Of a stretch of 64,000 nucleotides of DNA, positions 29,745 to 63,135 are shown in pieces. The position numbers and the translations under genes were made by a program. The stretch spans positions 72,935-136,934 of IMG/VR virus record IMGVR_UViG_3300010163_000004; one strand, given 5' to 3'. The notes beneath the pieces were generated by a model. That model had not been told where the DNA came from. It was given only the letters and a program-made list of their open reading frames with translations, and searched no databases. Numbering within the stretch: the first letter of the stretch is position 1; every line of letters starts with the position of its first letter. Source of the stretch: a virus (taxonomy: Duplodnaviria; Heunggongvirae; Uroviricota; Caudoviricetes).

Positions 29745-29815
29745 TTGGACTACCAGGATTCGAACCTAGACAAACAGAACCAAAATCTGTTGTGCTACCA
29801 TTACACCATAGTCCA
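29745..29815 (-). tRNA. tRNA-Gln(UUG). U1-A72, A73. D arm TGGTGTAATGGTAGCAC shared with the suppressor tRNA at 45713.
   Basis: Acceptor TGGACTA/TAGTCCA, anticodon arm ACAGA-TTTTGGT-TCTGT, T arm CTAGG-TTCGAAT-CCTGG. Confidence 0.8.
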
Positions 29816-31022: not shown

Positions 31023-32975
31023 TTACTTCACTTCTTCAAACTCAGCTGCTTGCTTCTTGCCGAACATTTCCTTTACTGTGTCAGCGAAAGGAATAGAACG
31101 CAACAAGTCAAGAGCAGGATTCAAGTTCTCAGCAGTCTTAGCCATGAAATTACCAGCGGTATTCTCATTACCATAAACAGTAACCTGTCCAAGGTGAATG
31201 TGTTCAAACATCTGAGCAGATGCCTGAGCAATACCAGCCAATTGGTCAACAGTCTTGTACTGAACCACCATTTGTGGAGTCAAGCCAGATTCAATCATCT
31301 TCTCAACTGCCAAGGCTGGAGCCATTTCGATAGCTTGAACCTTATCAGCTTCTGCCATCAATGATGCTCTCTTACCTTCGGCTTCAGCAAGCAATTTCTT
31401 GCGAGTACCTTCTGCCTCTGCTTCTAACTGCAGTTTAGTAGCGTCAGCTTTCGCTTCTGCTTCTTTCAAAATCTTTGCAGCTTCTGCTTCTGCTTCCAAT
31501 ACCGCTTTGGCTTTAATTGCTTCTGCTTCAATAGTTACCTTCTCTTTTTGTTTCTGAGCAGGAACAATTACTTCAGCTTGAAGTTTTGCTTCCTCTGCCT
31601 TAGCAGCGGCTTCGTTAACCTCAATCTGACGTTCTTGTTCTGTTTTGGCTACAGCCATTCTTGCTTCTACTTTAGAAGTACCAGCTACCTTTTCTGCTTC
31701 AGCTTGCGCCTGTGCAGCTTCTCCTTTTGCCTTTGATACTTCAATAGTTGCTTTCTGCTCAGCTACTCCAGCTTGCTTGTCAGCTTCTGCAGCCTTGATT
31801 CTCTTCTGAGACTCGTACTCTGCAGTAGCAGCTTCTTGCTCATTAATTGCTTTCTGAGTATCTGCTTCCTGCTTTTGCTTAGCTTGAGCAATACGAGTTT
31901 GCTTCAAAGCTTCAGCCTCAGCTTTCTTAGAATCTGCTTCTGCTTGAGCTTTAGCTACATTAGCTTCTGCTTCTGCGTCAGCAGCGGCTTTCTTAGAAGC
32001 AGCCTCTGAAGCGGATTTTGCTACATTAGCTATTCTCTGAGATTCTGCCTCAGCTTTAGCTGATTCTGCTTGAGTGTTTGCACGAGCAATACTAGCTTCT
32101 TGTTCCGCTTTCTGTTCAGCAATACCAGCTTGTTTGTTCTTCTCCGCTTCTGCCAAGCGAATAGCTTTCTCCTGATTAATCTCAGCAACCTTTACTTCCT
32201 GTTCTTGCTTAGTCTGAGCAACTGTAGTTTCTCTTTCCTTTTCAGCATCGGCTACGGCAATCTCACGCTGTTTGTTGGTTTCTGCAATCTGAATATCTCC
32301 TTTCTTCTTCTCTTCTGCAATGTCAGCCTGTGCCTGAGCAAGGGCCTTAGTCGCAGCCTTTTGCCCAAGATTTTTGATATAGTTTGCATCATCCGAGATA
32401 TCAGCATTGTTAATATTGATAATACTGAAACCTACCTTGTTCAACTCAGTTTCAATATTCTCTTTTGCCTTGCCAATAAACTTAATTCTATCGGCATTTA
32501 TTTCCTCAATCGTCATTGTTGCCATTAAGCTTCTCACTTCACCAATGAGAATATCCTTGATTTGGTCTGAGATCTCAGAAGTTTTGGCTGTCAAGAACCT
32601 GCTCGCAGCGTTTTGCATTAGTACTTGATCGGTTCCTATACCAGTAGTTAATGTTACGGGAATCCTAACCTTAATCATTTGGCTGGATACTCCCTCTACC
32701 ATTACCTGAATCTGAATAGGTTTCAAGGACATTTTAGCCCAATCTTGAATGACAGGCATTACGAATGTACCTCCACCGTGGATGATTTTAGACGGCAGTA
32801 TAACTTCCTCTGTTTTACCAGTCTTCTCATTAACTACCTTCTTCTTTCCTGCCTTACCAAATACTACCAGGATTTCATCACTAGCACACTTACGATATCG
32901 AGACAAGAGTCCGATGAAAGTTGCGACCACTAAGAGCACAATAACACCTGCTACAATAAGAGTTTCTGTCATCAT
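31023..32975 (-). CDS. SPFH/band-7 (flotillin or YqiK-like) membrane protein with a very long Ala/Glu/Lys-rich coiled-coil region
   Basis: 650 aa. N-terminal TM helix, SPFH-domain region, then about 350 aa of AEAKAEAE-type heptad repeats. The antisense ORFs called in this region are low-complexity artefacts. Confidence 0.65.
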   Translation of the reverse strand: MMTETLIVAGVIVLLVVATFIGLLSRYRKCASDEILVVFGKAGKKKVVNEKTGKTEEVILPSKIIHGGGTFVMPVIQDWAKMSLKPIQIQVMVEGVSSQMIKVRIPVTLTTGIGTDQVLMQNAASRFLTAKTSEISDQIKDILIGEVRSLMATMTIEEINADRIKFIGKAKENIETELNKVGFSIININNADISDDANYIKNLGQKAATKALAQAQADIAEEKKKGDIQIAETNKQREIAVADAEKERETTVAQTKQEQEVKVAEINQEKAIRLAEAEKNKQAGIAEQKAEQEASIARANTQAESAKAEAESQRIANVAKSASEAASKKAAADAEAEANVAKAQAEADSKKAEAEALKQTRIAQAKQKQEADTQKAINEQEAATAEYESQKRIKAAEADKQAGVAEQKATIEVSKAKGEAAQAQAEAEKVAGTSKVEARMAVAKTEQERQIEVNEAAAKAEEAKLQAEVIVPAQKQKEKVTIEAEAIKAKAVLEAEAEAAKILKEAEAKADATKLQLEAEAEGTRKKLLAEAEGKRASLMAEADKVQAIEMAPALAVEKMIESGLTPQMVVQYKTVDQLAGIAQASAQMFEHIHLGQVTVYGNENTAGNFMAKTAENLNPALDLLRSIPFADTVKEMFGKKQAAEFEEVK

Positions 32976-41568: not shown

Positions 41569-42065
41569 CTTCTTAATAAATTGCGTGACCCATTTCTGAA
41601 CCTATTCTCAAACAAAGTAGTATTGTAGCTAGAAGCCCAAAACCTAAGCACACTCCCACACTCTTGCATTTATAGCCTATGATGGCTATTATGTAGAAAA
41701 TAATTATAATTATCATAATATATCTTTTTTATAAGTTAATAATCTAAAGAAAATGTTACTATTCTCCCGAACTGTAACATTAATAGTAATAACTATAAAT
41801 TGTAAGAACTATTGGTTTCAGCTAAATAGCTTACTTATCCCTCAAACCACGTAAAGGTTGTTCTTATCTTGAGAGTTTGAGGCACCGCTGTGCCTCTAGT
41901 CTACAAATATATCGAAGAAATAATTGACCTTCCTGTGCCACAATACTTTGCCTTATTTCACAATAAGACATCTCTCCAATATCAAAGGATATACTGTTTG
42001 GTATAAGAGATGCTCTGCATTAGTCTCAGGGCGTACCCATTATGGTCAGTAAAAGAAAATGTTAG

Positions 42066-42135
42066 TTCCCTACCCTGGACTTGAACCAGAATCTTCTCCT
42101 TTTAAAGGAGACGTAATCTATTATACCAGTAGAGA
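42066..42135 (-). tRNA. tRNA-like, anticodon UAA (Leu-type anticodon) on a compact type I body with a 3-bp D stem lacking G18 and G19. Function uncertain.
   Basis: Acceptor TCTCTAC/GTAGGGA, anticodon arm TCTCC-TTTAAAA-GGAGA, T arm TCTGG-TTCAAGT-CCAGG. Sits inside a 1.2-kb non-coding region. Confidence 0.45.
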
Positions 42136-44920: not shown

Positions 44921-44933
44921 AACCCCAGGGGGG
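44921..44933. repeat. GC-rich motif AACCCCAGGGGGG, copy 1, in the divergent intergenic region
   Basis: Repeated at 45028-45039. Flanks the hairpin gtagtgg-tggaccg-ccactac. Confidence 0.5.
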
Positions 44934-45027: not shown

Positions 45028-45039
45028 ACCCCAGGGGGC
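45028..45039. repeat. GC-rich motif AACCCCAGGGGG, copy 2
   Basis: See 44921-44933. Confidence 0.5.
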
Positions 45040-45257
45040 TATTTATATAAAGTACCTGTACCGGCTTTCCCCTTAATATATAAAATATGTATAATATTTG
45101 AATTAGAATTTTTTAACTTTGCGTTTAACTTTTCGGAGGTTATTGTTGTATATAACTAAAAAGAAAACAATTATGATTACAGACTTAGAAACATTGTTAA
45201 ATTAGGACTAGTTTAAATAGCTAGTTGAGGCAATTAATACGAATCAAGAATATTATA

Positions 45258-45575
45258 TGTCTGGTAATGGGCTAACTATTAAGTCCGAATCTACCGACGA
45301 TTCTTTGTTCTTATTAATATCTTATGAAAGATAGAAGGAAGAAAGCTGCCTAGCTAATGAAGAGGTAGACCAATTCCAGAAATATTTAGAATCTCTAGAT
45401 GATAATTTATTTATAGATGTATGCGAATATCTAGGAGAACTTGAAGTTCGTAAAATACAAGGATGCTTAGAAAGCAGTAAGTTAGAAACAGTAAGAGCTG
45501 GTATTGCTAAATTCAAAATGGCACTGTCAGATATAGCTAAAAAGAGAATTGAACAACTGAAAGCTTATGTATGAA
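45258..45575 (+). CDS. hypothetical protein (105 aa) with one in-frame TAG
   Basis: Hand translation: MSGNGLTIKSESTDDSLFLLISYER[TAG]KEESCLANEE...KAYV*. Confidence 0.45.
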
Positions 45576-45712
45576 TAGATTGCTCAAATGAGAATACTAT
45601 TAGCTAATATCAACGCTACTATGCAGGCTTTATTTCACGAAAATGAACAATTAAGAAAAGAACTAGAGAAATTGGCAGCAGAAAATAAATCTCTAAAAGA
45701 GAAATAAGTTAC

Positions 45713-45784
45713 TGCCCTATGGTGTAATGGTCAGCACAGATGACTCTAAATCATTTAGTCTGGGTTCGAATCCTAGTAGGGCAA
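45713..45784 (+). tRNA. amber suppressor tRNA (anticodon CUA), derived from tRNA-Gln. Predicted to decode UAG as Gln.
   Basis: Cloverleaf: acceptor TGCCCTA/TAGGGCA (U1-A72), D arm GTGT-AATGGTCA-GCAC, anticodon arm GATGA-CTCTAAA-TCATT, variable TAGT, T arm CTGGG-TTCGAAT-CCTAG, A73. D arm, 8-9, T-loop and discriminator are shared with tRNA-Gln(UUG) at 29745-29815. Confidence 0.85.
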
Positions 45785-45803
45785 CGCCAAAAAATTAATA
45801 GTT

Positions 45804-46031
45804 ATGATAAAATTAAATGAGAATTATGTAGTAACTCCAACAGGGGCTAAAACTCTTATTATAGAAGAGGGAGACGATTGGAATAAAGTTTGTGAGAAGG
45901 TAGTTGGAAGTAAGTTTGATTATATCTTTGTACCTCAAGAATTTGAGAATCAAGCCTGCTATTTTCTTCCACAAATAACAGTTCAAGGAAAACAGATAGG
46001 TAAGATATGTACTTATAAGGTATTGAAATGA
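45804..46031 (+). CDS. hypothetical protein (75 aa)
   Basis: ORF track. Confidence 0.5.
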   Translation: MIKLNENYVVTPTGAKTLIIEEGDDWNKVCEKVVGSKFDYIFVPQEFENQACYFLPQITVQGKQIGKICTYKVLK

Positions 46032-46342
46032 AACAGTGTGCAGTTGTATTAAATGGAAATGATGTTGTCAAAGTCTCTAATTTAAAGAGAAAATATGACA
46101 AAATAATGAACAATTCTAATATGAAAATATTGGAGGAATGTGATAAGGAAATGTTAGATGAGAAGTACAACTATTGGAATAGAACATTAAATAGAAATAC
46201 AGAAGAGGAGAAAAAAGAGGAGGCTAAGATGCACCACTTTAAAAATCCGAAAACTGGATGCTCTATAACAAGTATCTATCCAGATTTGGAAGAATGTAAA
46301 TCATATATAAAAGACTGGATAGATTATGTTAAACTTGATTGA
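46028..46342 (+). CDS. hypothetical protein (104 aa)
   Basis: ORF track. Confidence 0.5.
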   Translation: MKQCAVVLNGNDVVKVSNLKRKYDKIMNNSNMKILEECDKEMLDEKYNYWNRTLNRNTEEEKKEEAKMHHFKNPKTGCSITSIYPDLEECKSYIKDWIDYVKLD

Positions 46343-46565
46343 AAAATATAATGAACTTACTAAATCGGAATTAGAGGAACTAGCAGAAATAACACTATTA
46401 GCTACGGAATCTTTAATTAATACTATTGTAGAAGAAGGAAAACAAAACGAACAATGGTTCTTAGATTATCTAGACAACTTAAATAAGCTAAGTGTATCGT
46501 ACTAATATATCAGTAGCCACAGATACTACGATAGAGAAAGAATTATTAACAACAGTTTAAAGGAT

Positions 46566-46760
46566 ATGATAAATTATAAGAAAACAATAACTAATATTCA
46601 TGAGCTGCTTCCAGAGCTAGACTTGGATGCATTATTTAAAATAATGGAGGCTATAGTAGAAGAAACCACTATAACTACAAGTTGGCCCAATAGCATCCGT
46701 TCGGATAAACCTTATTGGGAAGAACCAAACAGGATCACTTGTACGTATAATAGTAAATAA
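46566..46760 (+). CDS. hypothetical protein (64 aa)
   Basis: ORF track. Confidence 0.45.
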   Translation: MINYKKTITNIHELLPELDLDALFKIMEAIVEETTITTSWPNSIRSDKPYWEEPNRITCTYNSK

Positions 46761-46803: not shown

Positions 46804-47460
46804 GTTATGCGTTAACTTTTAGATATTTTATCCATGAAAACATCTTTCTCTATCCTTCTAGATACTATAAATTGTCTTCATTCATATAAGCTTCTTCTTC
46901 AAAGCTTACATCTCTGTAGCAATCATTTTGAGAATCTTTAAGTCTTAATAGCCGTATAATTAAATACTCTAATCCATACCAGATATAGAAAGATGGAATA
47001 GCTAACCATACCTATTCTAATCCAAATAATATAGATATAAGTATTGCAAACGCTATTGCACATTCCAAAATCTATACTGAATGGATATTCTCGTGATTCT
47101 TATCCTCACCAGTTAAATCCGACTTAGTAAATATTAATCCAAACAGATTAATTACTTTATAGCCTCCAAACGGTATAATATTATTTTTAATTATCATATT
47201 ATATAATACCAATCATTACGTTCTATAACTCCTTTCTCCTTGAGCTATTTATTATCTAAATGATAATCTCCATTTCTAAAATTTAATTCATTCTTAGTAT
47301 AGTCCCAATAAAAATACCCTTTCCAGCCGGGGAGTAATAAAGTACGACCAGTAGCCGCATAAAGAGTTGCTCTATTATAGTCCATATTACTTATTAAATA
47401 TAAACAGTAAATAAAGATATATCTTAAGTATAAATTCTTTAATTAATTTAACTACAGCCT

Positions 47461-49129
47461 TCATTGCTTTCTTGTTTTAATTAATCCATAATTTCCTTTC
47501 TTTAATCTAGTAGTAGGAATCCATCCATTATCTAGAATAGATCTATGCCCACTTGGTTTATGTATCTTAGCTCCATCTTCGTGTTTCCATTTAGCTGCGT
47601 TTCTAGCAAAGTTAGCACGCTTCTTCTGAAGAGGAGTAGCATTAGGATTGTTTAATACAGATTTAGCATGTTCCTATACAGACTATCCTGCAGCCTTAGC
47701 AGAGGCTGTAAATTTACCTCTATTTTTCTCTTTAATATGAATGCCTGACCCGTTTTTAAAAATTGGACATCCAAATATTTTCATTTTACCTCCACTTTTA
47801 TGTTTTTTAGAAAGTCCTATTGAAGAACTTCCATAATGTCCTTTGTGACCTATATTTTTTAGTATATTATTTTTAAACATACCTATTAATTCTACAGGCT
47901 ATGTTCCTTCCTATCCTACAAATAAATAATGCCTAAAGCCATTATCATCCTATTTAATTCTAGCCCTTTCAGCTCCAGCATTAGCCCTAACTTCATTTTC
48001 TATAGGAAATTCCATTTCAAAATCTTTATTGGCAATAGTTTTTATTTCATTCATATATTCATTATATATTTTCTTATATTCAGAGCTATTTCCAGATAAT
48101 TTAGCAGCTTCTAACCTTTTGATATATTTATCTTTATTTACTTTCTAGCTAGCCATTAAAAATATATCGTGATCAGAAGACCCTCCAGTGAGATAACCCC
48201 ATCCCTTATATGGTTTTGACGAAGTAACAAAAAAATTATTTCCAGGCTAAGTATAAAAATTAAAATCATTGTCTTTTATAAACTAACGTCTAGTAGACTA
48301 ACCTTTCTTTATAGGTCTTCTGACAATTCCTATGTAGCCCTCTGGACTTCCATTAGTATAGCCAAAGGCAGTACCAAAGTCATTTGATGTATATAAAGCA
48401 TTTTCAAAGTCTTCCAGTCCTGCTATATTAGTTCCAGTACTATTTGGTATTGTTGTAAGTGCCTTTCTAGCAGCTTCTTCTGAAGGCATATCAGCAGGTA
48501 TAAATCCAAGCTTTTTAGCTTCTGCTATATCTACTCCTCTTACAAAAGTATTATGTCTATTTACTACATGATCTGTAACTCTATCTAATTGTGCGTCATT
48601 AAATACTATAGTAGCTTTAGGTTTAATATCAGTATAATTATACTATTTCATAAATTTTTTTAAATGATTATAGTCTAATATATTACCTATTAAATTATTT
48701 GGAATATTATTCTTAATATAATTCCATCCCCTCCTAACTAAAGGAGCACTTAATCCTGGAACAAAGGCTAATCCTGCACTTAGGGCAGCCTATCCATAAT
48801 TTCCTAATCTTAACTAATTTCCTATATCTGCTATATCAGCAGCAGTATCTAATCCCGGAATAAATCCAGTAGCAGTAATTCCTAGGTCTATTATATCATC
48901 TGTAGAAATACCAGAACTTCTAGGCCTTTTCCCAACTATAGTTACTTCATCTAGAGTATTATTCGGGGGACTATAAGTTACCTACTTTCCGGCTAATTCG
49001 GCAGCTTTTGCTTTTCTATCCATCCTCTAACTATATAACCTCTATCTAGTTATATTGTCTCCTTTCCAAAAGGCTTCTAATTCTTCCTTCGAGGCTTTAT
49101 CAAAATCAGGTATTGGCATATTTGTTCAT
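47461..49129 (-). CDS. TAG-recoded gene (about 556 codons, at least 14 in-frame TAG, ends at TGA). Product unknown, basic C-terminus. Possibly a virion or internal protein.
   Basis: Hand translation of the minus strand. ORF-track fragments 47683..47880 and 48298..48489 are pieces of this single frame. Confidence 0.6.
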
Positions 49130-49251: not shown

Positions 49252-50166
49252 ATGGACAAAAGTAAAATTACAAAACAAAATGGGAACATAGCTTTCGAAG
49301 AGGAAGCTCATATTTATTATGATGTTACAAAGCCAGAACAGAAATTTATATCTGTAACGACTTTAATTCATTCTTTCACCCAACCCTTTGATAAAGAGTT
49401 CTGGTCAGCATACAAAAGTTTAGAAAAGCTTCTTAATAAAGATTCGTGGGCTATTGAGAAAAAGTCTTTACTAAATACTAAGAAATTTGATAGAACTTTA
49501 TTAGAATTACATGGGATTAGTGAAAATGATTTTAATAGGGAACAGCAAGCCATCTTAGATGCATGGGATATAGAGAACAGAAACTCTTGCGAGAGGGGAA
49601 CTAGAATACATGCAGATTTAGAAAACTCTTTTTATAAAAAGAAAAAGAACATTGATATTAGTAAGTTCGAAATAGGAGGCAAATTTGAATGCGAACAAGG
49701 TAGAACAACTCTAGACTTAGAGAATGGAATATATCCAGAATATCTGATTTCAAGAGTTTCGGATGATGGAAAGCTGAGATTAGCTGGTCAAATTGACTTG
49801 TTAGTTAAAAAAGGCAACAAGATTATCATAGGCGATTTTAAGACTAATAAGAAAATAGAAACTAAAAGCTTTTTCAATAGTAAAACTAAGTCATCTGTTA
49901 AGATGAAATATCCTCTAAACAATCTAGATGATGTTAACTATTATCATTACACACTTCAGCTTAGCACTTATGCTTGGATGGTTCAGAAGTATAACCCAGA
50001 ATTTGAGATAGAGGATCTGGTACTTATACATTTTGATCACAGCGATAACATGACAATATATCATGTTCCTTATCTAAAAGATGAAGTAATAAGAATGCTT
50101 TCTTTTTATAAGAAAGAATCTATATTGGCAGAAAATAAAAAGAAACGTCAACGTATTGAATATTAA
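49252..50166 (+). CDS. PD-(D/E)XK-family nuclease (Cas4, RecB or lambda-exonuclease-like fold)
   Basis: 304 aa. GQIDLLV ... IIGDFKTNKK fits the D...(D/E)xK motif. Confidence 0.5.
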   Translation: MDKSKITKQNGNIAFEEEAHIYYDVTKPEQKFISVTTLIHSFTQPFDKEFWSAYKSLEKLLNKDSWAIEKKSLLNTKKFDRTLLELHGISENDFNREQQAILDAWDIENRNSCERGTRIHADLENSFYKKKKNIDISKFEIGGKFECEQGRTTLDLENGIYPEYLISRVSDDGKLRLAGQIDLLVKKGNKIIIGDFKTNKKIETKSFFNSKTKSSVKMKYPLNNLDDVNYYHYTLQLSTYAWMVQKYNPEFEIEDLVLIHFDHSDNMTIYHVPYLKDEVIRMLSFYKKESILAENKKKRQRIEY

Positions 50167-50168
50167 TT

Positions 50169-50384
50169 ATGACACTAGAAGAAATAGAAGAAAGATGGAA
50201 AATATGCAGACGCTGTCCAATATGTAATCAAGAAGATGCAATATGTAATGGACAGTTGTATTTAAATCCAGAAAACAATGACATAAGCATTAGTCCAAAA
50301 GAAGGATATATAAAAGGATGTGGATGTCTTTTGGAATTAAAGATACCTAATGAGAAGAAGCATTGCCCTGCAAAGAAATGGTAA
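50169..50384 (+). CDS. small Cys-rich zinc-ribbon protein, tandem paralogue 1
   Basis: 71 aa. CRRCPICN...GCGCLLELK...HCPAKKW. Confidence 0.5.
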   Translation: MTLEEIEERWKICRRCPICNQEDAICNGQLYLNPENNDISISPKEGYIKGCGCLLELKIPNEKKHCPAKKW

Positions 50385-50611
50385 AGAAATGGATTAAAGC
50401 AATATTTACTAAACCTTTAGTAATATTAAAGAGCATATATTTCCATATATTTGGAATTAATCAAGATTTAGCAACCACAAGATTAAATATTTGTAGTGCT
50501 TGTCCTCATAAATTGCAGACTTCATTTGGAGAAGTATGTGAGGAATGTGGTTGTATACTAGAGAACAAAACTAGAATAGAAGATGAACATTGTGATTTAT
50601 GTAAATGGTAA
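50363..50611 (+). CDS. small Cys-rich zinc-ribbon protein, tandem paralogue 2
   Basis: 82 aa. CSACPH...CGCILENK...HCDLCKW. Confidence 0.5.
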   Translation: MPCKEMVKKWIKAIFTKPLVILKSIYFHIFGINQDLATTRLNICSACPHKLQTSFGEVCEECGCILENKTRIEDEHCDLCKW

Positions 50612-50619
50612 AATGAATT

Positions 50620-51222
50620 ATGGAAACTTTAAGAACAGAATTAAACAGTAATGAGAAACTAGCATTAGCTATGACTGGTATGGAAGGTACAGGAGAACAC
50701 TTTATCTTGAATGGAGAGGCTGCAGATAAAACTCTATTAAGAGAAAAACAGGAAAAATTCAATACAGCAGTAGATGAATTAGAAGATAAATTCTCTAAAC
50801 ATAATGCAGCTTTAGAATCTTACGCTAAATCATTATCTGAGGATATGAATGGTGTAGAAATTATGCCTATGTATGGGTATGCATTAATTAAACCTTTCGA
50901 ACAAAATCCGTTTCAAAAAATTAAAACTACTAAGAGTGGATTAATTACAGACTTAGGTGGATTTGCTCCAACATATAAATCTAATGAAACAGGGGAAATA
51001 GAAGAAGAACAGCAATTTATTAAAGTGGGTACTGTTATTGAGGTTGGACACAAGTGTGAGTTCTTAAAACCTGGAGATATAGTATTCTATACAATAGCTA
51101 GCGAGTGCATGGTTCCATTCTATAAGTTTGGATTTGTTGTAGTTAATGAGAACAGAATTATAGCTGTAGTTAACGAAAAGCTAACTGAAAGAAGAAACGA
51201 ATTGAAGTATGGAAACAATTGA
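50620..51222 (+). CDS. protein with a C-terminal GroES or T4 Gp31-like co-chaperonin fold (tentative)
   Basis: 200 aa. LIKPFE...KSGLITD...GTVIEVG...LKPGDIVFY resembles the GroES mobile loop and beta-barrel. Confidence 0.35.
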   Translation: METLRTELNSNEKLALAMTGMEGTGEHFILNGEAADKTLLREKQEKFNTAVDELEDKFSKHNAALESYAKSLSEDMNGVEIMPMYGYALIKPFEQNPFQKIKTTKSGLITDLGGFAPTYKSNETGEIEEEQQFIKVGTVIEVGHKCEFLKPGDIVFYTIASECMVPFYKFGFVVVNENRIIAVVNEKLTERRNELKYGNN

Positions 51223-51455
51223 TGAAAAAATTTACTTTAAGCCCGGAGATTGTGTTACTTTACGGTAGTGTAAAGTAATGCATTCTCCAGTTATGCTGGT
51301 TCTAAGAAGAGAAGCAGCTTTATTTAAAGATAACCAAGGATTACGAGGATTAAGATGTAGATGGTTTACTGATACTGGACTTATGTAGGAAGCAGTATTT
51401 AATACTAAGGACCTTTAGCTTGTTAGAGAGAATAAATAAAAAATATAGAAAAGCA

Positions 51456-52757
51456 ATGGATAAGATATAGTTTGACCCTGAATTGATGCGTAATATTAAA
51501 ATTATTTACGGAAATGTAGACTTAGATGACAAAACCTTAAGATAGCTATATTAGACTTGGACAACTAATCCTGATATTATTAGAAGAACTGTACAATAGA
51601 AAATGCCCAAGACATAGAAAACATACTTTGATGCTCCAGAAATGCCATCATTACCTACAAGATTAGAATCTCTTCCTACTACTGAGATAGCTCAAGATGA
51701 TTTAAGAGGTGTTAAAGATTTTAAAACAGCTTTTAGAGCTGCTAGAGAGAGGGGATTAAAATAGTTTATGTGGGGGAATTCTACATATACTACAGACTTA
51801 GAATAGCCTTCAGATAAACCTAAACAATCTTCTGCCGTTTAGATTCCAAAATCAGATACTTAGATTAGTATAAAGGCTCCAGATCTAACTGCCACAACAA
51901 AAGGAACTACTTGGGGTAGAGGAGTATAGACTATCACAGGAAGCAGTTAGCCAGCTAGTAAATAGTCTTCAAATAAACCTAAAGCAAATCCTGTATAGGT
52001 TACTACCAGTAGGTACACTATGGGAAATACAGTACAAGGAAGAGATTTTGGAATTGGTAGAGGAATCGGCAAAGGTTTTATGGGCTTCCTAAACTGGTTA
52101 AATAAAGGAGCTGCTAGTAATTAGTATAGTAAAAGTAAGTAGGTCAACCCACTTAGTTATTATCAACAAGGAGGAACAATGAATAATCAACAAGAATTAC
52201 AAAAAGCATTTATAGCATATCTAATACAGGATGCTACTTAGCAAGGAGTACAAATTCAATCTGAACAAGATTTATAGGCTTATGCTGAACAATTAGGTGA
52301 AGACGGTATTAAAGCTAAGTATCAGGAATTTATGCAAAAAATGCAAGGAGGAGTAATGGCTAGGCTTGGAGCTAAGCTTGAGTATTATAAGAAGCTAAAA
52401 GGAGTATGTCCAGAAGGAGAAGAGCTTGTATATTTTAAGCAAGGCGGTAGAATCTGTAAAGCTTGCCAGAAAGCACAAAAAGGAACTAAAGTTACTAAGA
52501 AAGCTAATGAAGTTGATAAATTTAAGGCTGGAAGAGCTTAGTATAAGAAAGATATGAAATCTGCTAGGGACGAAGCCTCGAGAGATTCTATATCAATCAA
52601 TAAATATAATGATTAGGAAACTATGGCCAATAAAGGACATAAGGGTAATTTCCAGAAAGGGAAATGGGTTCCTGATAGAAAACAATATGCTAAGAAAGAC
52701 GCTTGTGGTTCAAAAATGAAAGTCAATAAGTGCGGTTCCAAAATGAAAAAGAAATAA
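51456..52757 (+). CDS. TAG-recoded late gene (433 codons, about 17 in-frame TAG, ends at TAA TAA). Product unknown.
   Basis: One frame is open except for TAG from the upstream TAA (about 51350) to 52757. The ORF-track piece 52332..52541 is its 3' segment. Confidence 0.6.
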
Positions 52758-52794
52758 TAAGATTATCTAATATATATGATAATGATTAATGATT

Positions 52795-53355
52795 ATGAAT
52801 GTATTTAGCTATAACACTCTAACTAAATAGCTAGAAATAAATGAACCAGAGATATTGCTAGTTAAGGAATTTAAGGCTCTAATCTAGAGGGATAAATCTG
52901 TAGAAAAGGATAGAGCTACTAGAGAACTATCTTACATTTATTTAGCTATAGACTGGAAAAGTCCGTACAGTTAGTATTCGGAACATGAACGACATGACGA
53001 AGCTATTAGTGATTCTGGATTGACAGAATCAGAATTTAATGACCCTATATTTAGAGCAGCTTGTAGGAAATACAGAGCGTTACAAGATTCAAATAAATCG
53101 ATAAAATTACTAGAAGCAGCTAAAAGAGCCGCAGACTAGTTTATTGATTATTTCGAAACTATTGTAGATTTAAATGAGCGTGATAATAACGGCAAACCAG
53201 TATTCCAAGCTGAAAAAGTAATGAAGGAAATGGCTACCCTTCACAAAGTTCATGAAGAACTAATAACACTAGAAGACTAGGTTAAGAAAGAACTTACTGA
53301 ACAATCTACTGTTAGAGCCGGAGCTGTGGATGGTTTTGACCCAGGAGACTTTTAA
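52795..53355 (+). CDS. TAG-recoded gene (186 codons) immediately upstream of the large terminase. Candidate small terminase or packaging-associated protein (position-based guess).
   Basis: Hand translation MNVFSYNTLTK[TAG]LEINEPEILL...DGFDPGDF*. Confidence 0.45.
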
Positions 53356-53357
53356 TT

Positions 53358-55724
53358 ATGCCAAGAAAAAAGAAGATATTACCTGAAGAAATATAGAATA
53401 TTGTAGATTAGGTAAGAGAAAAAGAATAGAAAGAAGATGCTAAAGAAGCTAGAGAATTAGTATAGAAAATAAGAGAGGAAAGGGTCAGAAATTCTGACTA
53501 TTGGGATGTTAAAATAGGAGATAAAATAGAAGTATTTGACCCTACCTTATCTTATGAAATAACCGGATATAGACCTATTGATGAAACTCATGGATTGGAT
53601 TTTAACCCAGATTGGTTTACCGAGACTAGGGAAGTATATAAACGAACTGGTCAATATTGTCCCTACCTTAGAGATAGTAAGCGGTATAACGAATTTTGGA
53701 AAGAGCAATATAGAAGATGTAAGTATGGAATGACAGTTAATGAATACACTATTACTGGAGATAATTACTTCTTCTTAAATTTCTATTAGTTACCTACTAT
53801 TGACTAGTAGAAAGCCTCTGGTGAAGGTACTGATAATGACTTCCCAATATTCTTTGCATCACATTATATGTTCTTTCATTATCTACAGATGGCTAGAGTG
53901 CTACATAAGCACGCGGCTTTAATGAAAGCTCGTTCTATTGGATTCTCTGAAATAAATGCCTCTCTTTCTGCTCGTATGTACTCTGTTATTAGAAGAAGTA
54001 GGGTTATGATTACTTGCTTTAACGACACCTTCCTTAAGGGTACCTTTAGTAAGTTTGACAATGCTCTTACATTCTTAAATACTTGTACTGGAGGAGGATT
54101 TTTTAAATTGCGACTTATTGACCAGGATTTGAGAAAGAAATCAGGTAAACAAATCAAAATAAATGGTTAGTTTGAAGACGTAGGATTTAAATCTGAGGTT
54201 GTAGCAATTAACGGAGCTAAACCATCTAACATTCGTGGAGACCGTGTAGATTTATTAATATATGATGAAGCTGGTTCCTGGCCTGGACTTGATACCGCTG
54301 TGGTACAAGGTCAAGAACTTTGTGAAGTTCAAGGTATGCCTCGTGGAACAATGTTGTTTGGAGGTACTGGCGGTGATATGGGTGCTCCTCTAGAGGGCTT
54401 AAAAAAGATTTACTATAATCCAAGAGCATATAAGATTCTTCCATTTAGACATAATTGGACTTAGGATGGGACTACTATAGAGAGTGGATTCTTTATTCCA
54501 TACTTTATACAATCTTTGAATCCAGAATTTATGGACCACAGAGGAGTATGTAATACTGTGGAGTATAAGAAATTCTTATAGGAGGAGCGAGATAATCTGT
54601 TAGCTGTACCAGAAGACTACCTAAAGAAATGTGCTGAACGTTGTTGGAATGCAGAAGAAGCATTTAATCTAGAAGGTGTTAATAAGTTTAATAAAATCTT
54701 AGTTGCCGAATAGATAGCTAATATAAGACTTAAACAAATTGGCCCAAAACCTGAATGTGGTTATATTGATTATTTTTACAAAAATAATAAACATACTTAG
54801 GATAACATTGATGGTTTTAAATGGATTCCTAATAGCAATGGTAAAGTAAAAATTCTAGAGCATCCAATATGGTCTGACTTATATAAAGAACAAATGGAAA
54901 AGCTTAGATAGGAGGCAGAAGATAATGGCTAGGATTTTGAAGTTCCAGTTTATAAAGAAATGCGAGACTTATATGTAGCAGGTATAGACGGTATTGATAT
55001 TGGAGCGAATTAGACTTCTAAGGAAACCAGAGACCCGTCTGATTTCTGCATAACGATTAAGAAACGTGCGTTTGGTATGAATGACCCTCAGTATGTTGCT
55101 ATGTACAAGGATAGACCTGGAGACATCAGAGAAGCCTATAAAATAGCTATGTGTTTAGCTCGCTATTATAATTGTAAAATAAATATAGAAGCTACTCGTA
55201 TGGGTATGGTTACTTGGGCTAGAGAAAAAGGATGCCTTAACTATTTTATGAAGCGCCCAAGAGCTACTCTAACTGACGTTAGAAATGGAACTACTAAATA
55301 GTATGGAACTCCTGCTACAAAAACTATAATCGAATAGCATACTGATTTAACAGCCGCCTTTATAGAAGACTATTGCCATACTATATGGTTCGAAGAAATG
55401 CTAGAATAGTTCACTGCATATAATGATGAAAATAAGGGTAAGTATGATATTGTAGCCGCTGTAGGTATGACTGAGTTAGCAGACCAAGAGCTATCAGGAA
55501 GACAGCCCGTACTTGTGGAGAAAGAAGTTGAATAGTTCCAAGATTTTGGTTACTATTACGACGAGAGAGGAATTAAAAGATTTGGAGTTATTCCAACTAA
55601 GAAAACTCCTGAACTTAATATGCAAAGAAACGAATATGATGACCCATACAGAGTTGAAACAAGTGATCCTAGAATATATGAGGGACTTGTACAAAATGGA
55701 GTATATAGGCGGACTAGATATTGA
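53358..55724 (+). CDS. terL: terminase large subunit (788 codons, about 19 in-frame TAG, ends at TGA), TAG-recoded
   Basis: ATPase Walker B VDLLIYDEAGSWPG. C-terminal RuvC-like nuclease motifs DLYVAGIDGIDIGAN...DIVAAVGMTE. ORF-track pieces 53595.., 53868.. and 55077.. are all in this frame. Confidence 0.8.
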
Positions 55725-55974
55725 GAGTTTAGACCCGGTTGGGTATAAAGTCTCTTTTAACTTTGATAGGTCAGAAATGCCATTAGTAATAATAGCAGAT
55801 TTACCAGACGAAGAATTTCTGCCATTTATTAAGGAAGAATTAAGAAGTAGGAAGTTACAAAGAGTTAAGTATTATAACGCTACTAAACTTCCTCCAGAAC
55901 AACATAATTTATGTTATGAAAGAGAAGGAATTAATAGACAAGACAAACGAGGCTATTGCGGAACTTGTATATGA
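55636..55974 (+). CDS. small protein in the +1 frame overlapping the terminase 3' end. Standard-code ORF 55513..55974; an internal Met start at 55636 is more plausible.
   Basis: ORF track. Overlaps terL by about 90-210 nt depending on start. Confidence 0.35.
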   Translation: MMTHTELKQVILEYMRDLYKMEYIGGLDIESLDPVGYKVSFNFDRSEMPLVIIADLPDEEFLPFIKEELRSRKLQRVKYYNATKLPPEQHNLCYEREGINRQDKRGYCGTCI

Positions 55975-58087
55975 TAAGTATGAGTTACAGAAAGCTTATA
56001 ATTATTATAATGGTAAAAGGGATCCTGAATAGTTCCGTTATCTGGAAGAAAACTTCGGAATAGGCAGCCCCACTTCGGTAGAGTTTACACCTTTATTAAA
56101 GAAACACGTAGATGCTCTAGTTGGAGAATATTTAGGAACTCCCATACTTCCGAAAATTTCTTGCAAAGATTCAGATACTATTAGTAATATAACAAGAGAG
56201 AAGCAGCTAGAAATAACCAAGGGAATAGTAAAGTTTTTGAAAGACCATTTAAGTAATTCAATTCTTAAGTTTATTGATGGCAAGGATATTACTGATAAAG
56301 CTGTAAAGACTTAGTTAGATAAAATTATATAGGATATTGACCAATCCTTTATTTCTCAATATGAAGTTGCAGCTTAGAATATAGTGCATTATATTATGCA
56401 ATCTAGAGAAACCGATTTAATTACTAAGTTACGTTAGTTACTAACAGACTTATTAATTACTGGTTATACATTCTTTAGAGTGAAATCATCAGCTTCTGGA
56501 ACTAATATTGAAATAGAGGTATTAAATCCGCTTAATACATTTGTTGATAGAAATCCAGAATCTCCATATGTAAGAAATTCATATAGAGTTGTAGTAAGAA
56601 AGTGGATGAGTAAGAGTTAGATTTTAGCTAAATATGGCAAAGAAATATCTAGAGAAGATTTAAGAAGACTAAAGGATGAATGGCGGGCTGATGATTCTGC
56701 TGCTATTTATAGGAGAGTATATGGAGATACTTGTACAGTCGTAAACGAAGATTAGAATCATGAAACCATTCCTGGTTATCCAGACAATGAATATAGTGCT
56801 CATAGGTTCTAGTTAATCCCAGTCTATGATGTTGAATGGATTGAGACAGATGATGACTTTGTAATGTAGAGATACAATACTATCAGAATAGGAGAAGAGA
56901 TATATATTCTTAGAGGATTAGACAAGACTGTTATGAGATCTAAAGATAATCCCAACTTCTGTTCTTTATCGGTAAATGGAGTATATTTCTTAAATCGCTC
57001 TTAGTAGCCTTATTCTCTTATATTAAAATGTGCACATCTGTAGGATAGATACGACTTATTAAACTATTATAGAGATAACCTAATAGCTAATAGTGGTACT
57101 GCTGGAGTTATTATGGATATGTCTCTATTACCTATTAACTTAGGAGTTAAATGGCCAGAACGGGTACAAAAATGGTTAGCCTATAAAAAAGGTGGTATCA
57201 TGTGGATAGACTCAAGCCAAGAAGGTAGAAATGACGGACAGCAAGCTCCAAACTAGATATATAACGGATTTGATGATACCTTAAAAGCATAGGCTGTATA
57301 GGCTATCGAATTAGCTATTCAATCAGTAGAACAAACTACATCATCAATAACTGGAGTATTTAGGGAACGACTTAACGGTATAGAAACTAGAGATGCAGTT
57401 ACTAATATTAAGTAGGGAGTAGCTAACTCGTATATAGTAACTAAGCACTACTTCTAGCAGATGGATTTAATAACCTGTGAGATACTACTAGATAGCCTTA
57501 ATTAGGCTAAAGTTACTTATAAGAAAGGATTAACTGGAACTATTATACTCGGGGATAAATATCAACAGATATTTACAGCACTTCCTGAGTATTTTACTGT
57601 TACTGACTACGATATTCATATTACTGCTAGTTCAGAAGTGATGGAAGATCTATAGACTATAAAAGCAATCATTCCAGAGTTCGTAAAAAGTCAACAGATG
57701 GATCCAGATATTATTTTTGAGGCTCTTACATCTAAGAGTCTGACAGACCTTAAATATAAGGTTAAGAAAGCTGTTCAAGTTCGCAAAGAGGAAAATAACC
57801 AGCTTCAGCAACTACAAGAGAAATTAGAAGAAACTTCTCAATAGGCTCAGTAGTTGTAGCAAGAATTATAGAAGGCTCAGCAAAAGATTGAAAGCTTAGA
57901 TGAATAGAGGCTAGGATTAGAATAGTAGAAGATGCAGTTAGAATATAAAGTTAACTGGCTTAAAGCTTAGTCTGATTCTACTTATAAAGATAGACAAATG
58001 GATATTGAAGAAAAAAGAACTGAAATAGAGTTGGCTTAGCTTCATGATGGAAATCCATATAATGATAAAATAAGACAAATACATTAA
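55916..58087 (+). CDS. portal protein (723 codons, about 25 in-frame TAG), TAG-recoded
   Basis: Position immediately after terL. Size and composition fit a portal. Call is by synteny and size rather than motif. Confidence 0.55.
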
Positions 58088-58088
58088 T

Positions 58089-58820
58089 ATGGCAACTGGA
58101 ACAATTGTATACAATAAAGATTAGCAATAGATTTATCCTATCTCTGATGGGACAGTGATTATAAGTAATGCTTCCGGTTCTAAATCAAATGTAGAAGATG
58201 ACTTAAAAAAATTATTTAAGTAGGTATCAGATTTATCTGGCTCAAGTGAAGCAGTTAATAGTATTATTATTAAAATACATTATCTCCCTGCTAATACCGC
58301 CGACGAATCTGAAATAAGACTATCAAATAAGTAGTGGTCTGATACTTTTGAACTTCCAACAGAAGAGAATCCATATATATGGAAAAGAACTAAATTTACT
58401 TTTTAGGGGGCTGATGAATCATCGGGAACTACTATCTATGAGATAGTAGCAAGTGATGTTTCTACTATTATATAGACTATATATACTAGAACTGAGGGAA
58501 TAACGCCAGTTATAGAATATAAATAGAAAACAGATGAAGAAGGAAATCTACTATATATAGATGCTGAGGGAAAAGAGACAACAGCTGTTACTCCGAATAA
58601 AGCGTATGATTATGATTATTATTGGAACGGAAAACCGTCTGGCAAATTAAATAGTTTACCACCAACTCCAGAAAGTTAGTCATATACTTGGACAGACTAT
58701 CCTCAAGATATTAGTTTATCATTTAATTCAGTCTTTATGTCTAGACGTATAAGACAAGAAGGTAAATGGAAACCTTTTTCTACTCCTGCTCAATATGGCT
58801 AGTGGCCTACTGAGTCTTAA
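58089..58820 (+). CDS. TAG-recoded structural-module protein (243 codons)
   Basis: Hand translation MATGTIVYNKD[TAG]Q[TAG]IYPISDG...QYG[TAG]WPTES*. Confidence 0.5.
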
Positions 58821-58830
58821 TTATTACAAT

Positions 58831-59562
58831 ATGGAATTTAGTATTGATATACATACCAAAATTAATGGGGAAATACTGATAGAAGATTTCTCAAAAGAAT
58901 ATGGCTAGTATATTGATGAAGATGTAGAGGTAGTAACTTCTTACGACTCCTATAAGTATAGTGAGAGTGCTACCTTAAATACTATCATCAAGGTTAGTAT
59001 AAGTGATGCTACTCTGATAGATGTTTTACTTAATGACCATACAGAAGACCTAGACTCGTGTATGTTTAAGGTTAAAGATGATGGCTATTACGTAGTAGAC
59101 CATATCATTATTCCTAATATGAAATGGTACGAAAATTCATCCGACGAGTATAAAGAATACTATGAGACTATCTATGTTACTGATGGAGAAAAATTATATA
59201 AAGAAGTAGAAGGTAAACTAGAAGAGTGTACAGTTAAAGAAGTTCTTGAACGAAATATAGAAGGAACTACTATAAAAAAATGTAAGGTAGATGTTTTCTT
59301 TACGGGAAACTTGTAGTAGTGTTACATTAATTATTGTAAGAAACTCTTTGATGCTTTACTAAATAAGTGTCTAACTAGAGATTAGGAGGCAGATATATTT
59401 GCCAGAGATTTCATATGGATGACTCTTAACATTATAGATTATTTAATATGCTTTAAACAATTCATGGAGGCTGAGAGATTACTAGCGATGTTCCGTACCT
59501 GTGGAGGATTCTGTGATAATCACCACCATGGACATAAACGTATAGGTTGTGGATGCTCTTAA
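58831..59562 (+). CDS. TAG-recoded structural-module protein (243 codons). Contains two consecutive TAG codons at 59314-59319; could alternatively be two genes.
   Basis: ORF-track piece 59062..59316 is in frame. C-terminal part is Cys/His-rich. Confidence 0.45.
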
Positions 59563-59717
59563 GAGAAAGGCTATTAAAAGGTATGAGGATTTTCTAAGAA
59601 AACTCAAAAAGGGATATAAACCAGATTATCAAGATATTCTGAATCTAATTTGTTTTATTAACCTACCTGTAAGACTAGATAATCACGAATTTATTAAATA
59701 GCAATTATTAAACTAGA

Positions 59718-61292
59718 ATGATACAGTCTATTTACACTTCGGTAAGTAACGCAGATATAGTGCCTTGTGGTAAAAAGGGTAAGCCTATAAAATGTGAGCC
59801 TATACCTCTCTTAAGAAATAACTATTTAGGAGAATATAGGACAGAACTAGAAAAAGCTAAAGTAAGAAAGAATTTAGGTATTGCTGATGAGTAGAGTCTA
59901 TTGTGGGGAAACATTAGTGGAACCATAGAACTGCAAAAAGACCTAGTATAGTATATAGAACAAAAATGGACCTATACTAGTGACGTTGCAGAAGGCATTA
60001 ATACTGTGAAAGATGCTCTAGACTATGCCCTATACTTTATTAGTGAATATGAATCTAATACAGAAGAAATAGAAGAACTAAAAGTCGATATAAGCAATAT
60101 TAGAACTTCTATATCTGTATTGAAGGAGGATTTACAACGAGAAATTGATACTAATAGAAAAGGAATTAATAATCTATCTGAAGAAATAGTAAAAATCAAT
60201 GAAGCTATAGTTGAGTTGAATAATGCTATTGAGAATATAGATGTTGATAAAAACATTCTTAATTGGGTTAAGAATAGTCTTCAAAATTCTAAAACTATAG
60301 AAATAAAGGAAGATAATTCTTTAGAGGTAATTTTGTCTACTTAGGAAGATAATGCTATTCATTTAATAGAATAGGAGATTGGAGAGGAAACCTCTTCTAT
60401 TATTCTTCCAGGTATCTATGTTAAAAATCTCGAGCCTGCTCTAGAAGAAACAAAAAAAGAAGTATAGAAAACTTAGGAAGCACAACAAGAGACAAATGCC
60501 AAAGTAGAAGCTAATACTGAAAACATCACTAATATACAAACTAATTTAGAAACTATAGCTACTTATTAGACTGAACTCCCAGATGATACTATTTCAACGG
60601 TAATTGAAGGAACTACAGTAGAGAAACTTAAAGGCAAACCCTTTAATGAAATTATTGATACTTTACTATTTCCAACAGTAGTTAGAGATTTGGTATATCC
60701 ATGGCTTTATTATAGTTTTACTTCTCAAATAGTGGAAGTAGGAACTGCTTTATTAACTCCTACACTTACATTTATAAAGAATGATGCTGGAGAAGAAACT
60801 GACAGACAAGAAACTATTACTTATAACAGCTCTCCTGTAGAGTCTGATACATATAATTCTATTGGTACTTATACTTACTATGGTGTCGTGAGCTATGCTG
60901 CTGGAGAATATTTGATAAATAATAAAGGAGAAGTTACAGATAAGAGAATAGAAGCTGGTTCTATTTCTGCTACCGCTTAGGTAGTAGCCACATATCCTTG
61001 GTATTCTGGTAATACTGATGGTATGATTAAATAGGAGTTAGTTCCTTTTGGACAATTGTCTGGAACTATCACATTTTCACTAAGTGGTAAGGCTATTATA
61101 AAATTGCCAGGAAGTAATACATAGTTAAATTCATTTACCGTAGATGGAGGACTTGGATATTTAAATGTAGACCTAAGTGGTTGGGAAACGTCTACCGAGT
61201 AGATAAATGGATTTACTTACAAGGTATGGACTAAGAAAGACACTTATTCCTCAGCATTGCCACATCAAATTAACTTTATTCTATCACAATAA
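59718..61292 (+). CDS. TAG-recoded tail or fibre-like protein (524 codons), coiled-coil N-terminal half
   Basis: ORF-track pieces 60006..60344 and 60690..60980 are in frame. Ends at TAATG, overlapping the next start. Confidence 0.55.
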
Positions 61293-63130: not shown

Positions 63131-63135
63131 ACAAT

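Follow-up and report, generated by a model that had tools for sequence, protein, structure and literature searches.

A tRNA gene with the anticodon CUA at positions 45713-45784 on the plus strand of the window (the whole 64,000-nucleotide stretch of viral DNA that was analysed) very probably encodes a functional amber suppressor of the tRNA-Gln family, which would decode UAG as glutamine in a crAss-like phage that uses genetic code 15. The phage is probably a large gut virus of the crAss-like group (Crassvirales), of a type that appears to be Zeta. Its TerL protein matches those of crAss-like and Flavobacterium phages at 22-28% identity, as well as PHROG 6681, and one homologue of this protein (P0003) carries intein/homing-endonuclease domains. 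Features of Zeta-type phages include a genome of 145-192 kb, numerous tRNAs and inteins or introns.

Suppression of this type is an already known and well-documented code 15 phenomenon. Suppressor tRNAs and late-gene recoding have been described in crAss-like phages, particularly in groups Beta and Zeta (Yutin et al., 2021, PMC7886860), CTA suppressors have been tabulated for Zeta phages (Zeta/'Echekviridae' survey, PMC12386605), and metaproteomics has confirmed that crAss-like phages read TAG as Gln (Peters et al., 2022, PMC9523058). The present analysis adds detail to this picture, since the suppressor appears to be a minimally altered Gln tRNA (G36A, G37A and one extra D-loop base) and no copy of the host-like tRNA-Gln(UUG) that the phage also encodes, and since it holds a conserved operon position behind a TAG-bearing ORF. 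The Gln anatomy of the tRNA, its placement 4-8 nt past an ORF stop and the two-strand mosaic of TAG-bearing genes described below are absent from the earlier accounts consulted (PMC7886860; Borges et al., bioRxiv 10.1101/2021.08.26.457843; PMC9523058; PMC12386605).

The CUA tRNA and its family

In the 64-kb window, ARAGORN called a tRNA with anticodon CTA at 45713-45785(+), and the Rfam covariance model RF00005 covers 45713-45784 with 66.3 bits (E=3.2e-12; gathering score, 29 bits), a match that extends over the full model length (positions 1-71 of 71) and ranks third in score among the tRNAs of the window. The 72 nt, which include the discriminator A73, fold into a canonical class-I cloverleaf (5' half, TGCCCTA TG GTGT AATGGTCA GCAC A GATGA CTCTAAA TCATT; 3' half, TAGT CTGGG TTCGAAT CCTAG TAGGGCA A). 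In this fold the acceptor stem is closed by U1-A72 and followed by U8 and G9, the D-arm reads GTGT/AATGGTCA/GCAC, the T-loop is TTCGAAT, and the anticodon (C34 U35 A36; 45746-45748, plus strand) lies in the 7-nt loop C32-U33-CUA-A37-A38; the gene does not encode CCA.

A preliminary description of this DNA had recognized a clean 72-nt CUA cloverleaf on the plus strand, and the ARAGORN call, the Rfam score and the pairing retained in 17 orthologues (see below) all bear this out. The same description had expected ARAGORN to report a suppressor; the program did call a tRNA with anticodon CTA, but it gave the label 'Pyl', which it assigns to all tRNAs with a CUA anticodon. ARAGORN found 22 tRNAs in the window, and the other 21 are all minus-strand genes located from 15.8 to 42.1 kb, so this gene is, as had also been stated, the sole plus-strand tRNA of the window.

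The tRNA is conserved in related phages. A search of public data for TerL homologues (cut-off, E<=1e-10) returned 2,641 proteins, the best at 97% identity, on contigs of up to 195 kb, and four relatives with TerL proteins 72-83% identical to that of the window (L001-L004) were selected, of which three included 10 kb of flanking sequence to either side. All four carry an orthologous CUA tRNA in syntenic position, roughly 7 kb upstream of TerL and oriented like it, and a pattern scan of IMG/VR identified Gln-type CUA tRNAs in 82 viral contigs, mostly of 100-190 kb, of which 30 contain the exact sequence of the window tRNA. No tRNA was found in the 24 kb examined of a fifth phage (L009), which has a TerL 45% identical and is also TAG-recoded. 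A megablast search of the region from 44 to 64 kb against 50,697 GenBank phage records gave no match, so that an annotated close relative was not usable for comparison.

An alignment of 17 distinct orthologues of the suppressor provides a test of its structure. Standard pairs occupy 99.7% of the cells in this alignment, compared with 81.8 +/- 1.4% after shuffling and 43-54% in slid registers. Compensatory changes on both sides were observed at 13 of 21 pairs, including all five of the anticodon stem, whereas slid registers yielded 1-5 such pairs, and the observed covariation score was reached by none of 500 shuffles. Variation is absent from U1, the D-arm, the CUCUAAA loop and A73, and it does occur at pairs 2-71 and 3-70; the 1-72 pair is U-A in 10 orthologues, U-G in seven and G-C in none.

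The D-arm assigns this tRNA to the glutamine family. When its exact D-arm 18/19-mer, ATGGTGTAATGGT(N)AGCAC, was searched in the genomes of 185,579 species, at least 120 loci were found, mostly Bacteroidales among the matches listed, and the carriers among those listed comprise 117 tRNA-Gln out of 122 (83 UUG and 34 CUG) and five tRNA-His. Compared with the consensus (at least 90%) of these 117 listed bacterial tRNA-Gln, the suppressor departs only by G36A, G37A and an inserted D-loop base, and this extra base is found in 17 of 17 suppressor orthologues and in one of the 117 bacterial Gln tRNAs among the matches listed. The earlier proposal of a Gln-family amber suppressor is therefore upheld, both by the distribution of the D-arm among the matches listed and by the alignment with Bacteroidota Gln tRNAs, in which consensus positions differ only at 36 and 37. 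When 354 unselected tRNAs were ranked by simple identity to the suppressor, Gln again came first (maximum 56, median 48), in a panel that discriminates weakly between Gln and Leu (class-II Leu, maximum 55); as far as this comparison extends, it made no assignment to a family other than Gln.

The known identity set of E. coli GlnRS consists of G2-C71, G3-C70, G73, G10, U35, G36, A37 and U38, and a weak 1-72 pair such as U1-A72 is a recognition feature for GlnRS and GatCAB (E. coli, S. aureus). By these E. coli rules, which may not fit the host, the suppressor contains G2-C71, G10, U35 and A37, and lacks G3-C70 (C3-G70 instead), G73 (A73), G36 (A36) and U38 (A38). The presence of A36 in place of G36 is unavoidable because the anticodon is CUA, and Bacteroidales tRNA-Gln also have U1-A72 and A73, the latter suggesting that the E. 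coli identity rules may not apply to the host. In tRNAs that read UNN codons, an A36-A37-A38 loop is the context for modification by a MiaA-type enzyme.

Given these features, a route to glutamine insertion can be proposed. The G36A change would turn a C/UUG anticodon context into CUA, and G37A would generate the A36-A37-A38 loop that is typical for tRNAs reading codons that start with U. The hallmarks of tRNA-Gln (the weak U1-A72 pair, the invariant D-arm, U35 and A73) would be kept, so the host glutamine-charging system should load the suppressor with Gln, and the enzyme responsible is most likely the GlnRS of a Bacteroidales host. In E. coli, GlnRS relies strongly on C34 and U35, and amber suppressors are notorious for being charged with glutamine, as is cited by Borges et al. 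(bioRxiv 10.1101/2021.08.26.457843). No aaRS, RF or Gat (amidotransferase) family member was found among the 73 ORFs scanned in the window, which represents about one-third of a ~190-kb genome.

A similar conversion is known from E. coli supE (glnV44), a tRNA-Gln2 changed from CUG to CUA, which became an amber suppressor by G36A with C34 and U35 kept and with charging by GlnRS still expected (cited by Borges et al., 10.1101/2021.08.26.457843, as reference 47 therein). The phage suppressor differs from supE in its added A37, A38, C32 and extra D-loop base, and it is without the E. coli G3-C70 and G73. The two also differ in the load they carry, since supE is encoded on the chromosome and suppresses weakly, in a cell where UAG continues to act as a stop, whereas the phage tRNA would have to serve 31 UAG per 1000 late codons (116 in 3,766).

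UAG as a sense codon

Treating TAG as a sense codon increases ORF coverage from 10,185 to 16,849 aa (ORFs of at least 150 aa), reveals ORFs of 190-795 aa in the region beginning at 51.3 kb and restores the TerL, portal and tail ORFs. Annotation of the window therefore requires genetic code 15; the standard code fragments about 40% of its coding capacity, including the terminase, portal and tail genes. The recoded genes are concentrated in a block at 51209-64000(+) that would depend on the suppressor, and which contains TerL (53358-55724(+); 19 TAGs; PHROG 6681, E=4e-62), portal (55916-58087(+); 28 TAGs), and tail and unknown genes with 4-21 TAGs each. With 4-28 in-frame TAGs in each late gene, TAG makes up 52% of late-gene Gln codons (116 TAG, 82 CAA and 25 CAG), and the proposed suppressor would decode these UAGs, 4-28 for each of the genes for packaging, portal and tail, under genetic code 15.

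The identity of the inserted residue was read from codons, by comparing 11 genes with their counterparts in the four relatives at the DNA level, an approach that avoids circularity through database translations. Gln codons accounted for 62 of the 153 non-TAG partner codons, and the log-likelihood of the partner profile is -350 for Gln, compared with -521 (Glu), -776 (Leu), -786 (Tyr) and -798 (Trp). The commonest partner of TAG is CAA, which is two mutations distant, and in the reverse direction 70 Gln codons of the window (44 CAA and 26 CAG, CAA being the commonest window codon at these positions) lie opposite TAGs of the relatives. Conserved TerL columns in which TAG exchanges with CAA or CAG among phages include 13, 271, 369, 408, 452 and 684. 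The reading of UAG as Gln, which had been put forward from the tRNA, is thus strongly supported by the preference of TAG for exchange with CAA and CAG, by a likelihood well above that of the next residue and by the Gln-type D-arm.

This codon-level comparison replaced a residue reading from database TerL homologues, which was dropped because it is partly circular. In that reading, 262 of the 418 cells aligned with TerL TAGs contained Q (background, 4.4% Q), a count that is partly circular because the homologues are themselves TAG-recoded and were translated through TAG. The more distant TerL proteins of cr109, cr115, Fpv2 and PhiCrAssBcn11 were uninformative, as they have no conserved Gln columns and their alignment is unreliable at 22-28% identity; this distant set is mostly standard-code, and the TerL genes of cr109 and cr115 contain in-frame TAGs of their own.

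That the tRNA inserts not Gln but Trp, Tyr, Leu, Ser, Lys, Glu or pyrrolysine could be argued from the ARAGORN label 'Pyl' and from the tRNA-Trp of the window, which at 67% is the second most similar to the suppressor. Every such alternative is more than 170 log-likelihood units worse in the substitution profile and is at odds with a Gln-specific D-arm, so a non-Gln reading is extremely improbable. Pyrrolysine in particular was rejected, since the tRNA has none of the unusual architecture of tRNA-Pyl, matches the canonical model over its full length, carries a Gln-type D-arm and serves codons whose substitution profile fits Gln.

Decoding of UAG as Gln at this density places a high demand on the suppressor. 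For an ORF with 19-28 UAGs, about 50% full-length product is calculated to need per-codon suppression of at least 97%, a level that a suppressor tRNA alone would not be expected to reach against RF1. A suppressor good enough for 28 UAGs per ORF would also read through host UAG stops, and there are Zeta crAss-like phages in which a CTA suppressor persists although no genes are recoded, for which 'inactive' suppressor a role in host damage or counter-defence has been proposed (PMC12386605). It is very unlikely that such an effect on host stops is the main role of the tRNA described here, because its phage could not make TerL, portal and tail proteins without UAG read-through; decoding of phage genes is therefore required, and any host effect would be at most additional.

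Origin of the suppressor

The phage encodes a second member of the glutamine family, a tRNA-Gln(UUG) at 29745-29815(-) that was detected by ARAGORN and Rfam and had been proposed as the parent of the suppressor. The features listed in the preliminary description as common to the two (U1-A72, TG at positions 8-9, the D-arm, the T-loop and A73) are all present, and the pair is the most similar of the 231 tRNA pairs in the window (55/73 identical, 75%). The label of paralogue that had been derived from these features holds in so far as the two tRNAs belong to a common family, but not as a statement of duplication, since tRNA-Gln(UUG) is identical at 68 of 71 positions to bacterial tRNA-Gln and at 54 of 71 to the suppressor.

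The bacterial tRNA-Gln in question belongs to a Bacteroidaceae metagenome-assembled genome, a Mediterranea MAG (L021), on a contig where it is flanked by TyrRS, HemD and DUF4271, which indicates that this contig is a bacterial chromosome. tRNA-Gln(UUG) is a near-copy of this gene and looks like a recent host-derived acquisition, which may also be a hint to the host of the phage (Bacteroidaceae/Mediterranea). By comparison, the nearest bacterial neighbours of the suppressor are Gln(CUG) tRNAs, at 57-60 of 72 positions. Since tRNA-Gln(UUG) is nearer to bacterial Gln tRNAs and the suppressor nearer to Gln(CUG), the two share a family without a demonstrable duplication inside the phage, and the suppressor, judged by these identities, is an older lineage that has been kept across the phage clade, with a history distinct from that of tRNA-Gln(UUG).

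That the suppressor arose within the lineage as a duplicate of the tRNA-Gln(UUG) which the phage encodes is accordingly unlikely, even though the two form the closest pair in the window and have U1-A72, the D-arm, the T-loop and A73 in common. These common features are family-wide features of Gln tRNAs, and the far greater likeness of tRNA-Gln(UUG) to a chromosomal Bacteroidaceae gene, together with the Gln(CUG) matches of the suppressor, also argues against it. In addition, pairs of a Gln-type Sup-CUA and a Gln tRNA on other viral contigs share only 45-55 identical positions, and a UUG parent would need two anticodon changes to become CUA where a CUG parent needs one (the supE-like G36A). The shortness of tRNAs places their deep history beyond resolution.

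Gene layout, timing and other recoded phages

The leftward part of the window (1-44848, minus strand) is a replication and auxiliary block that is compatible with the standard code and, by the ORF and tRNA calls, contains the other 21 tRNAs. Across these 45 kb TAG is essentially absent in frame, and the 50 ORFs of the block end in 27 TAA, 19 TGA and four TAG, so TAG is not required there as a terminator. Three of the four early TAG stops are backed by TAA or TGA within 0-5 codons; the fourth, that of the ORF at 21126-21821, is followed by 152 more open codons. A lysin-like glucosaminidase ORF at 19672-20163 in this block is TAG-free.

A divergent intergenic region of 324 bp, between 44848 and 45173, separates the minus-strand block from a rightward unit that holds the suppressor. 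This unit begins with a conserved 133-aa ORF (45173-45574(+)) that has four in-frame TAGs and orthologues in the four relatives (35-56% identical, 0-3 TAGs), followed by a small coiled-coil ORF of 39-46 aa (45567-45707(+)), the stop of which lies 5 nt before the tRNA, and, directly downstream of the tRNA, by four small TAG-free ORFs (45804-46760(+)). Next come three minus-strand ORFs (46805-49119(-)) with 4, 1 and 15 in-frame TAGs, the largest of 552 aa, which need UAG read-through and have partial homologues in the four relatives and in L009. They are followed by TAG-free ORFs (49252-51222(+)) that, from ORF calls and profile matches, encode a PD-(D/E)XK exonuclease, two small proteins and a GroES-like protein, and then by the TAG-rich late block. 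Pfam gave no match to the ORF at 45173-45574 or to the four ORFs at 45804-46760, and neither Pfam nor PHROGs matched the tRNA-flanking ORFs or the 552-aa minus-strand ORF.

The gene arrangement around the suppressor is syntenic in the four relatives. Of 52 orthologous IMG/VR loci, 36 have an ORF stop 4-8 nt before the tRNA start, and 44 lack a second tRNA within 3 kb. Since a spacing of 4-8 nt is too short for a promoter of its own, the tRNA is most likely released from a polycistronic RNA, and co-transcription with the flanking ORFs may be inferred from this layout. Host processing enzymes would then excise the tRNA from the polycistronic unit in which it is embedded, and host enzymes would add CCA. 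A candidate Bacteroidota-type -7 element, TAACTTTG (TAnnTTTG), lies at 45114-45121(+), 52 nt before the first ATG of the unit. This motif is found at equal distance in L003 and L004 and as a variant in L002, has a chance rate of ~1.2 per kb in the window, and provides weak evidence for a candidate promoter of the unit that holds the tRNA; a sigma-70 promoter scan around the tRNA remained at chance level (10 found, 9.5 expected).

This arrangement bears on the suggestion that the tRNA sits at a switch point between early and late genes. One part of this suggestion stands, as the tRNA heads a rightward block and does so in the relatives as well, but the boundary is a mosaic. The clean division into minus-strand early genes and plus-strand TAG-containing genes that had been described is contradicted by a plus-strand ORF with four TAGs upstream of the tRNA, by three TAG-bearing ORFs on the minus strand and by eight TAG-free ORFs on the plus strand.

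The related idea that the tRNA is a timing device, made at a set stage and licensing late translation as an adaptive switch, follows a published model of standard-code early and alternative-code late genes (Borges et al., bioRxiv 10.1101/2021.08.26.457843) and is a serious possibility, albeit one that we hold at somewhat below even probability. The near-absence of TAG from the 45-kb replication and auxiliary block, set against its 52% share of late Gln codons, speaks for a timer, and the suppressor is separated from the remaining 21 tRNAs, on the opposite strand and at the head of a rightward unit, in a position kept in relatives. However, measured timing is absent from the reports consulted (10.1101/2021.08.26.457843; PMC7886860; PMC12386605; PMC10607447), the code boundary is a mosaic rather than a switch point, four TAGs have to be suppressed already in the first ORF of the transcription unit to which the tRNA belongs, and the lysin-like ORF lacks TAG. 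A passive route would give an equal TAG distribution, because genes translated before the tRNA is made would be intolerant of TAG and later genes would drift from CAG or CAA to TAG. Avoidance of TAG in early genes would, in the mechanism proposed for the suppressor, follow from their translation before the tRNA accumulates, and the distribution of TAG across the window may be explained equally well as such a passive constraint.

A self-priming switch, in which the tRNA would be made from the host-type promoter TAACTTTG on the same RNA as the UAG-needing ORF at 45173-45574, is a rather unlikely elaboration. If it were true, the product of ORF 45173-45574 and the long form of that at 21126-21821 would appear only after tRNA maturation.

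From known code 15 crAss-like phages, the phage described here differs in nothing fundamental. Like them, it appears to be a large gut phage (contigs of relatives extend to 195 kb) with a TerL homologous to those of Crassvirales and many tRNAs (22 here); its replication block is TAG-free, TAG abounds in its genes for packaging, portal and tail, and TAG aligns with Gln. The phage-encoded CUA suppressor and the lack of a dedicated aaRS or RF found nearby are also shared.

Comparisons with two other recoded systems are instructive. In the TGA-recoded Jade phages, the lysis cassette is preceded by a code-change module of suppressor tRNA, TrpRS and RF1 (Borges et al., 10.1101/2021.08.26.457843). 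There, as here, the suppressor tRNA heads a block of recoded genes, but no aaRS or RF was found among the ORFs scanned in this window, and the ORF at the head of the unit that holds the tRNA is recoded, whereas the Jade module is in standard code. The SUP-CTA of phAss-1 (Phassvirus) was called Gln by tRNAscan-SE, and this phage resembles the present one in its Gln-assigned amber suppressor, in the presence of TAG in TerL and structural genes and in the lack of a dedicated aaRS (PMC10607447). It differs in belonging to another lineage with predicted Bacillota hosts and in having 2-3 suppressor copies, compared with a single Gln-type copy in this window (PMC10607447).

A second tRNA family, unrelated to the suppressor and represented in the window at 42065-42135, has an anticodon that toggles between CUA, UUA and UAA among near-identical phages, an observation that hints at a multi-layer, fast-evolving code-change system beyond a single suppressor.

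TAG usage and auxiliary genes on the minus strand

The minus-strand 'early' block (positions 1-44848), which is essentially free of in-frame TAG and contains the replication and auxiliary genes, is not matched by a uniform rule for minus-strand genes elsewhere in the window. Strand alone does not set code usage in this DNA, since three minus-strand ORFs at 46805-49119, the largest of which is 552 aa, contain 4, 1 and 15 in-frame TAGs; no family match was found for these three ORFs. TAG is found as a terminator within the 'early' block, where the minus-strand ORF at 21126-21821 ends in this codon and is followed by 152 further open codons to position 20667; the region 20667-21821 represents either two adjoining genes or one protein with a suppressor-dependent long form.

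The lysis genes of phages have a reported bias toward recoded stops. Contrary to this bias, a lysin-like ORF with a glucosaminidase domain (19672-20163, minus strand; Pfam PF01832, E=1.6e-17) lies within the TAG-free block. Other auxiliary functions predicted from minus-strand genes of this block include a NAMPT/NAPRTase-family enzyme (8970-10523), an OmpA-like outer-membrane protein (11653-12669) and an SPFH/Band-7 protein (31023-32975), and a pooled scan of its ORFs also gave a match of one small ORF to the tRNA-ligase phosphodiesterase (CPD) domain (E=8.5e-08).

Phage tRNAs with altered anticodons, atypical structures or host-like sequence

A second tRNA family changes its anticodon among related phages. 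Its member in the window, a 71-nt class I tRNA (42065-42135, minus strand), lacks a long variable arm despite being labeled Leu(UAA) by ARAGORN. Other members of the family, whose scaffold is nearly the same, carry a CUA (amber) or a UUA (ochre) anticodon and were found in L003 (671-742), a locus which also has a syntenic orthologue of the window's Gln-type suppressor, and in the IMG/VR viral loci L132, L134, L143, L154, L155, L163, L172, L177, L186 and others. The anticodon loop is TTTAAAA in the window, versus CTCTAAA or CTTTAAA in the CUA/UUA relatives, and some phages with these CUA or UUA members also carry an identical Gln-type suppressor (tRNA-Sup(CUA)).

In some IMG/VR loci (L176 at 12986, L197 at 3041 and similar ones), the Gln-type CUA suppressors are 91 nt in length and contain an insertion of ~18 nt 3' of the anticodon stem (…CCCTCTGAAGGAG…); in this Gln-type scaffold, the extra segment represents an intron or else a long variable arm. 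An 83-nt window tRNA (26622-26704, minus strand; Rfam, 52.9 bits) was called as Tyr by ARAGORN with an implausible ATA anticodon; its anticodon region is oversized and may contain an intron or form an atypical loop.

A Mediterranea sp. (Bacteroidaceae) MAG contains a chromosomal tRNA-Gln gene (L021, 5175-5247) flanked by those for TyrRS and HemD, and the phage tRNA-Gln(UUG) (29745-29815, minus strand) is identical to it at 68 of 71 positions. This sequence identity hints at a host within the Bacteroidaceae, and suggests that a host tRNA was recently acquired by the phage.

The divergent intergenic region and mobile elements in relatives

A G+C-rich box (CCCCAGGGGG) occurs twice (44923-44933 and 45029-45038) in the otherwise AT-rich intergenic region between the divergent blocks. 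Both copies lie within blocks that are conserved in L003 and L004, two of the four relatives' loci with a syntenic suppressor, and adjoin the turning point in GC skew at 44-50 kb; these boxes may be an origin or regulator-binding site.

Mobile elements are present in relatives. The 1131-aa TerL homologue P0003 contains intein/homing-endonuclease domains within TerL. In L004 (4813-6747, 21697-22118), a LAGLIDADG-containing ORF replaces the exonuclease region, and 3' of the tail genes lies a gene for a reverse transcriptase, possibly part of a diversity-generating retroelement. This content agrees with the richness in mobile elements of Zeta-type crAss-like phages.
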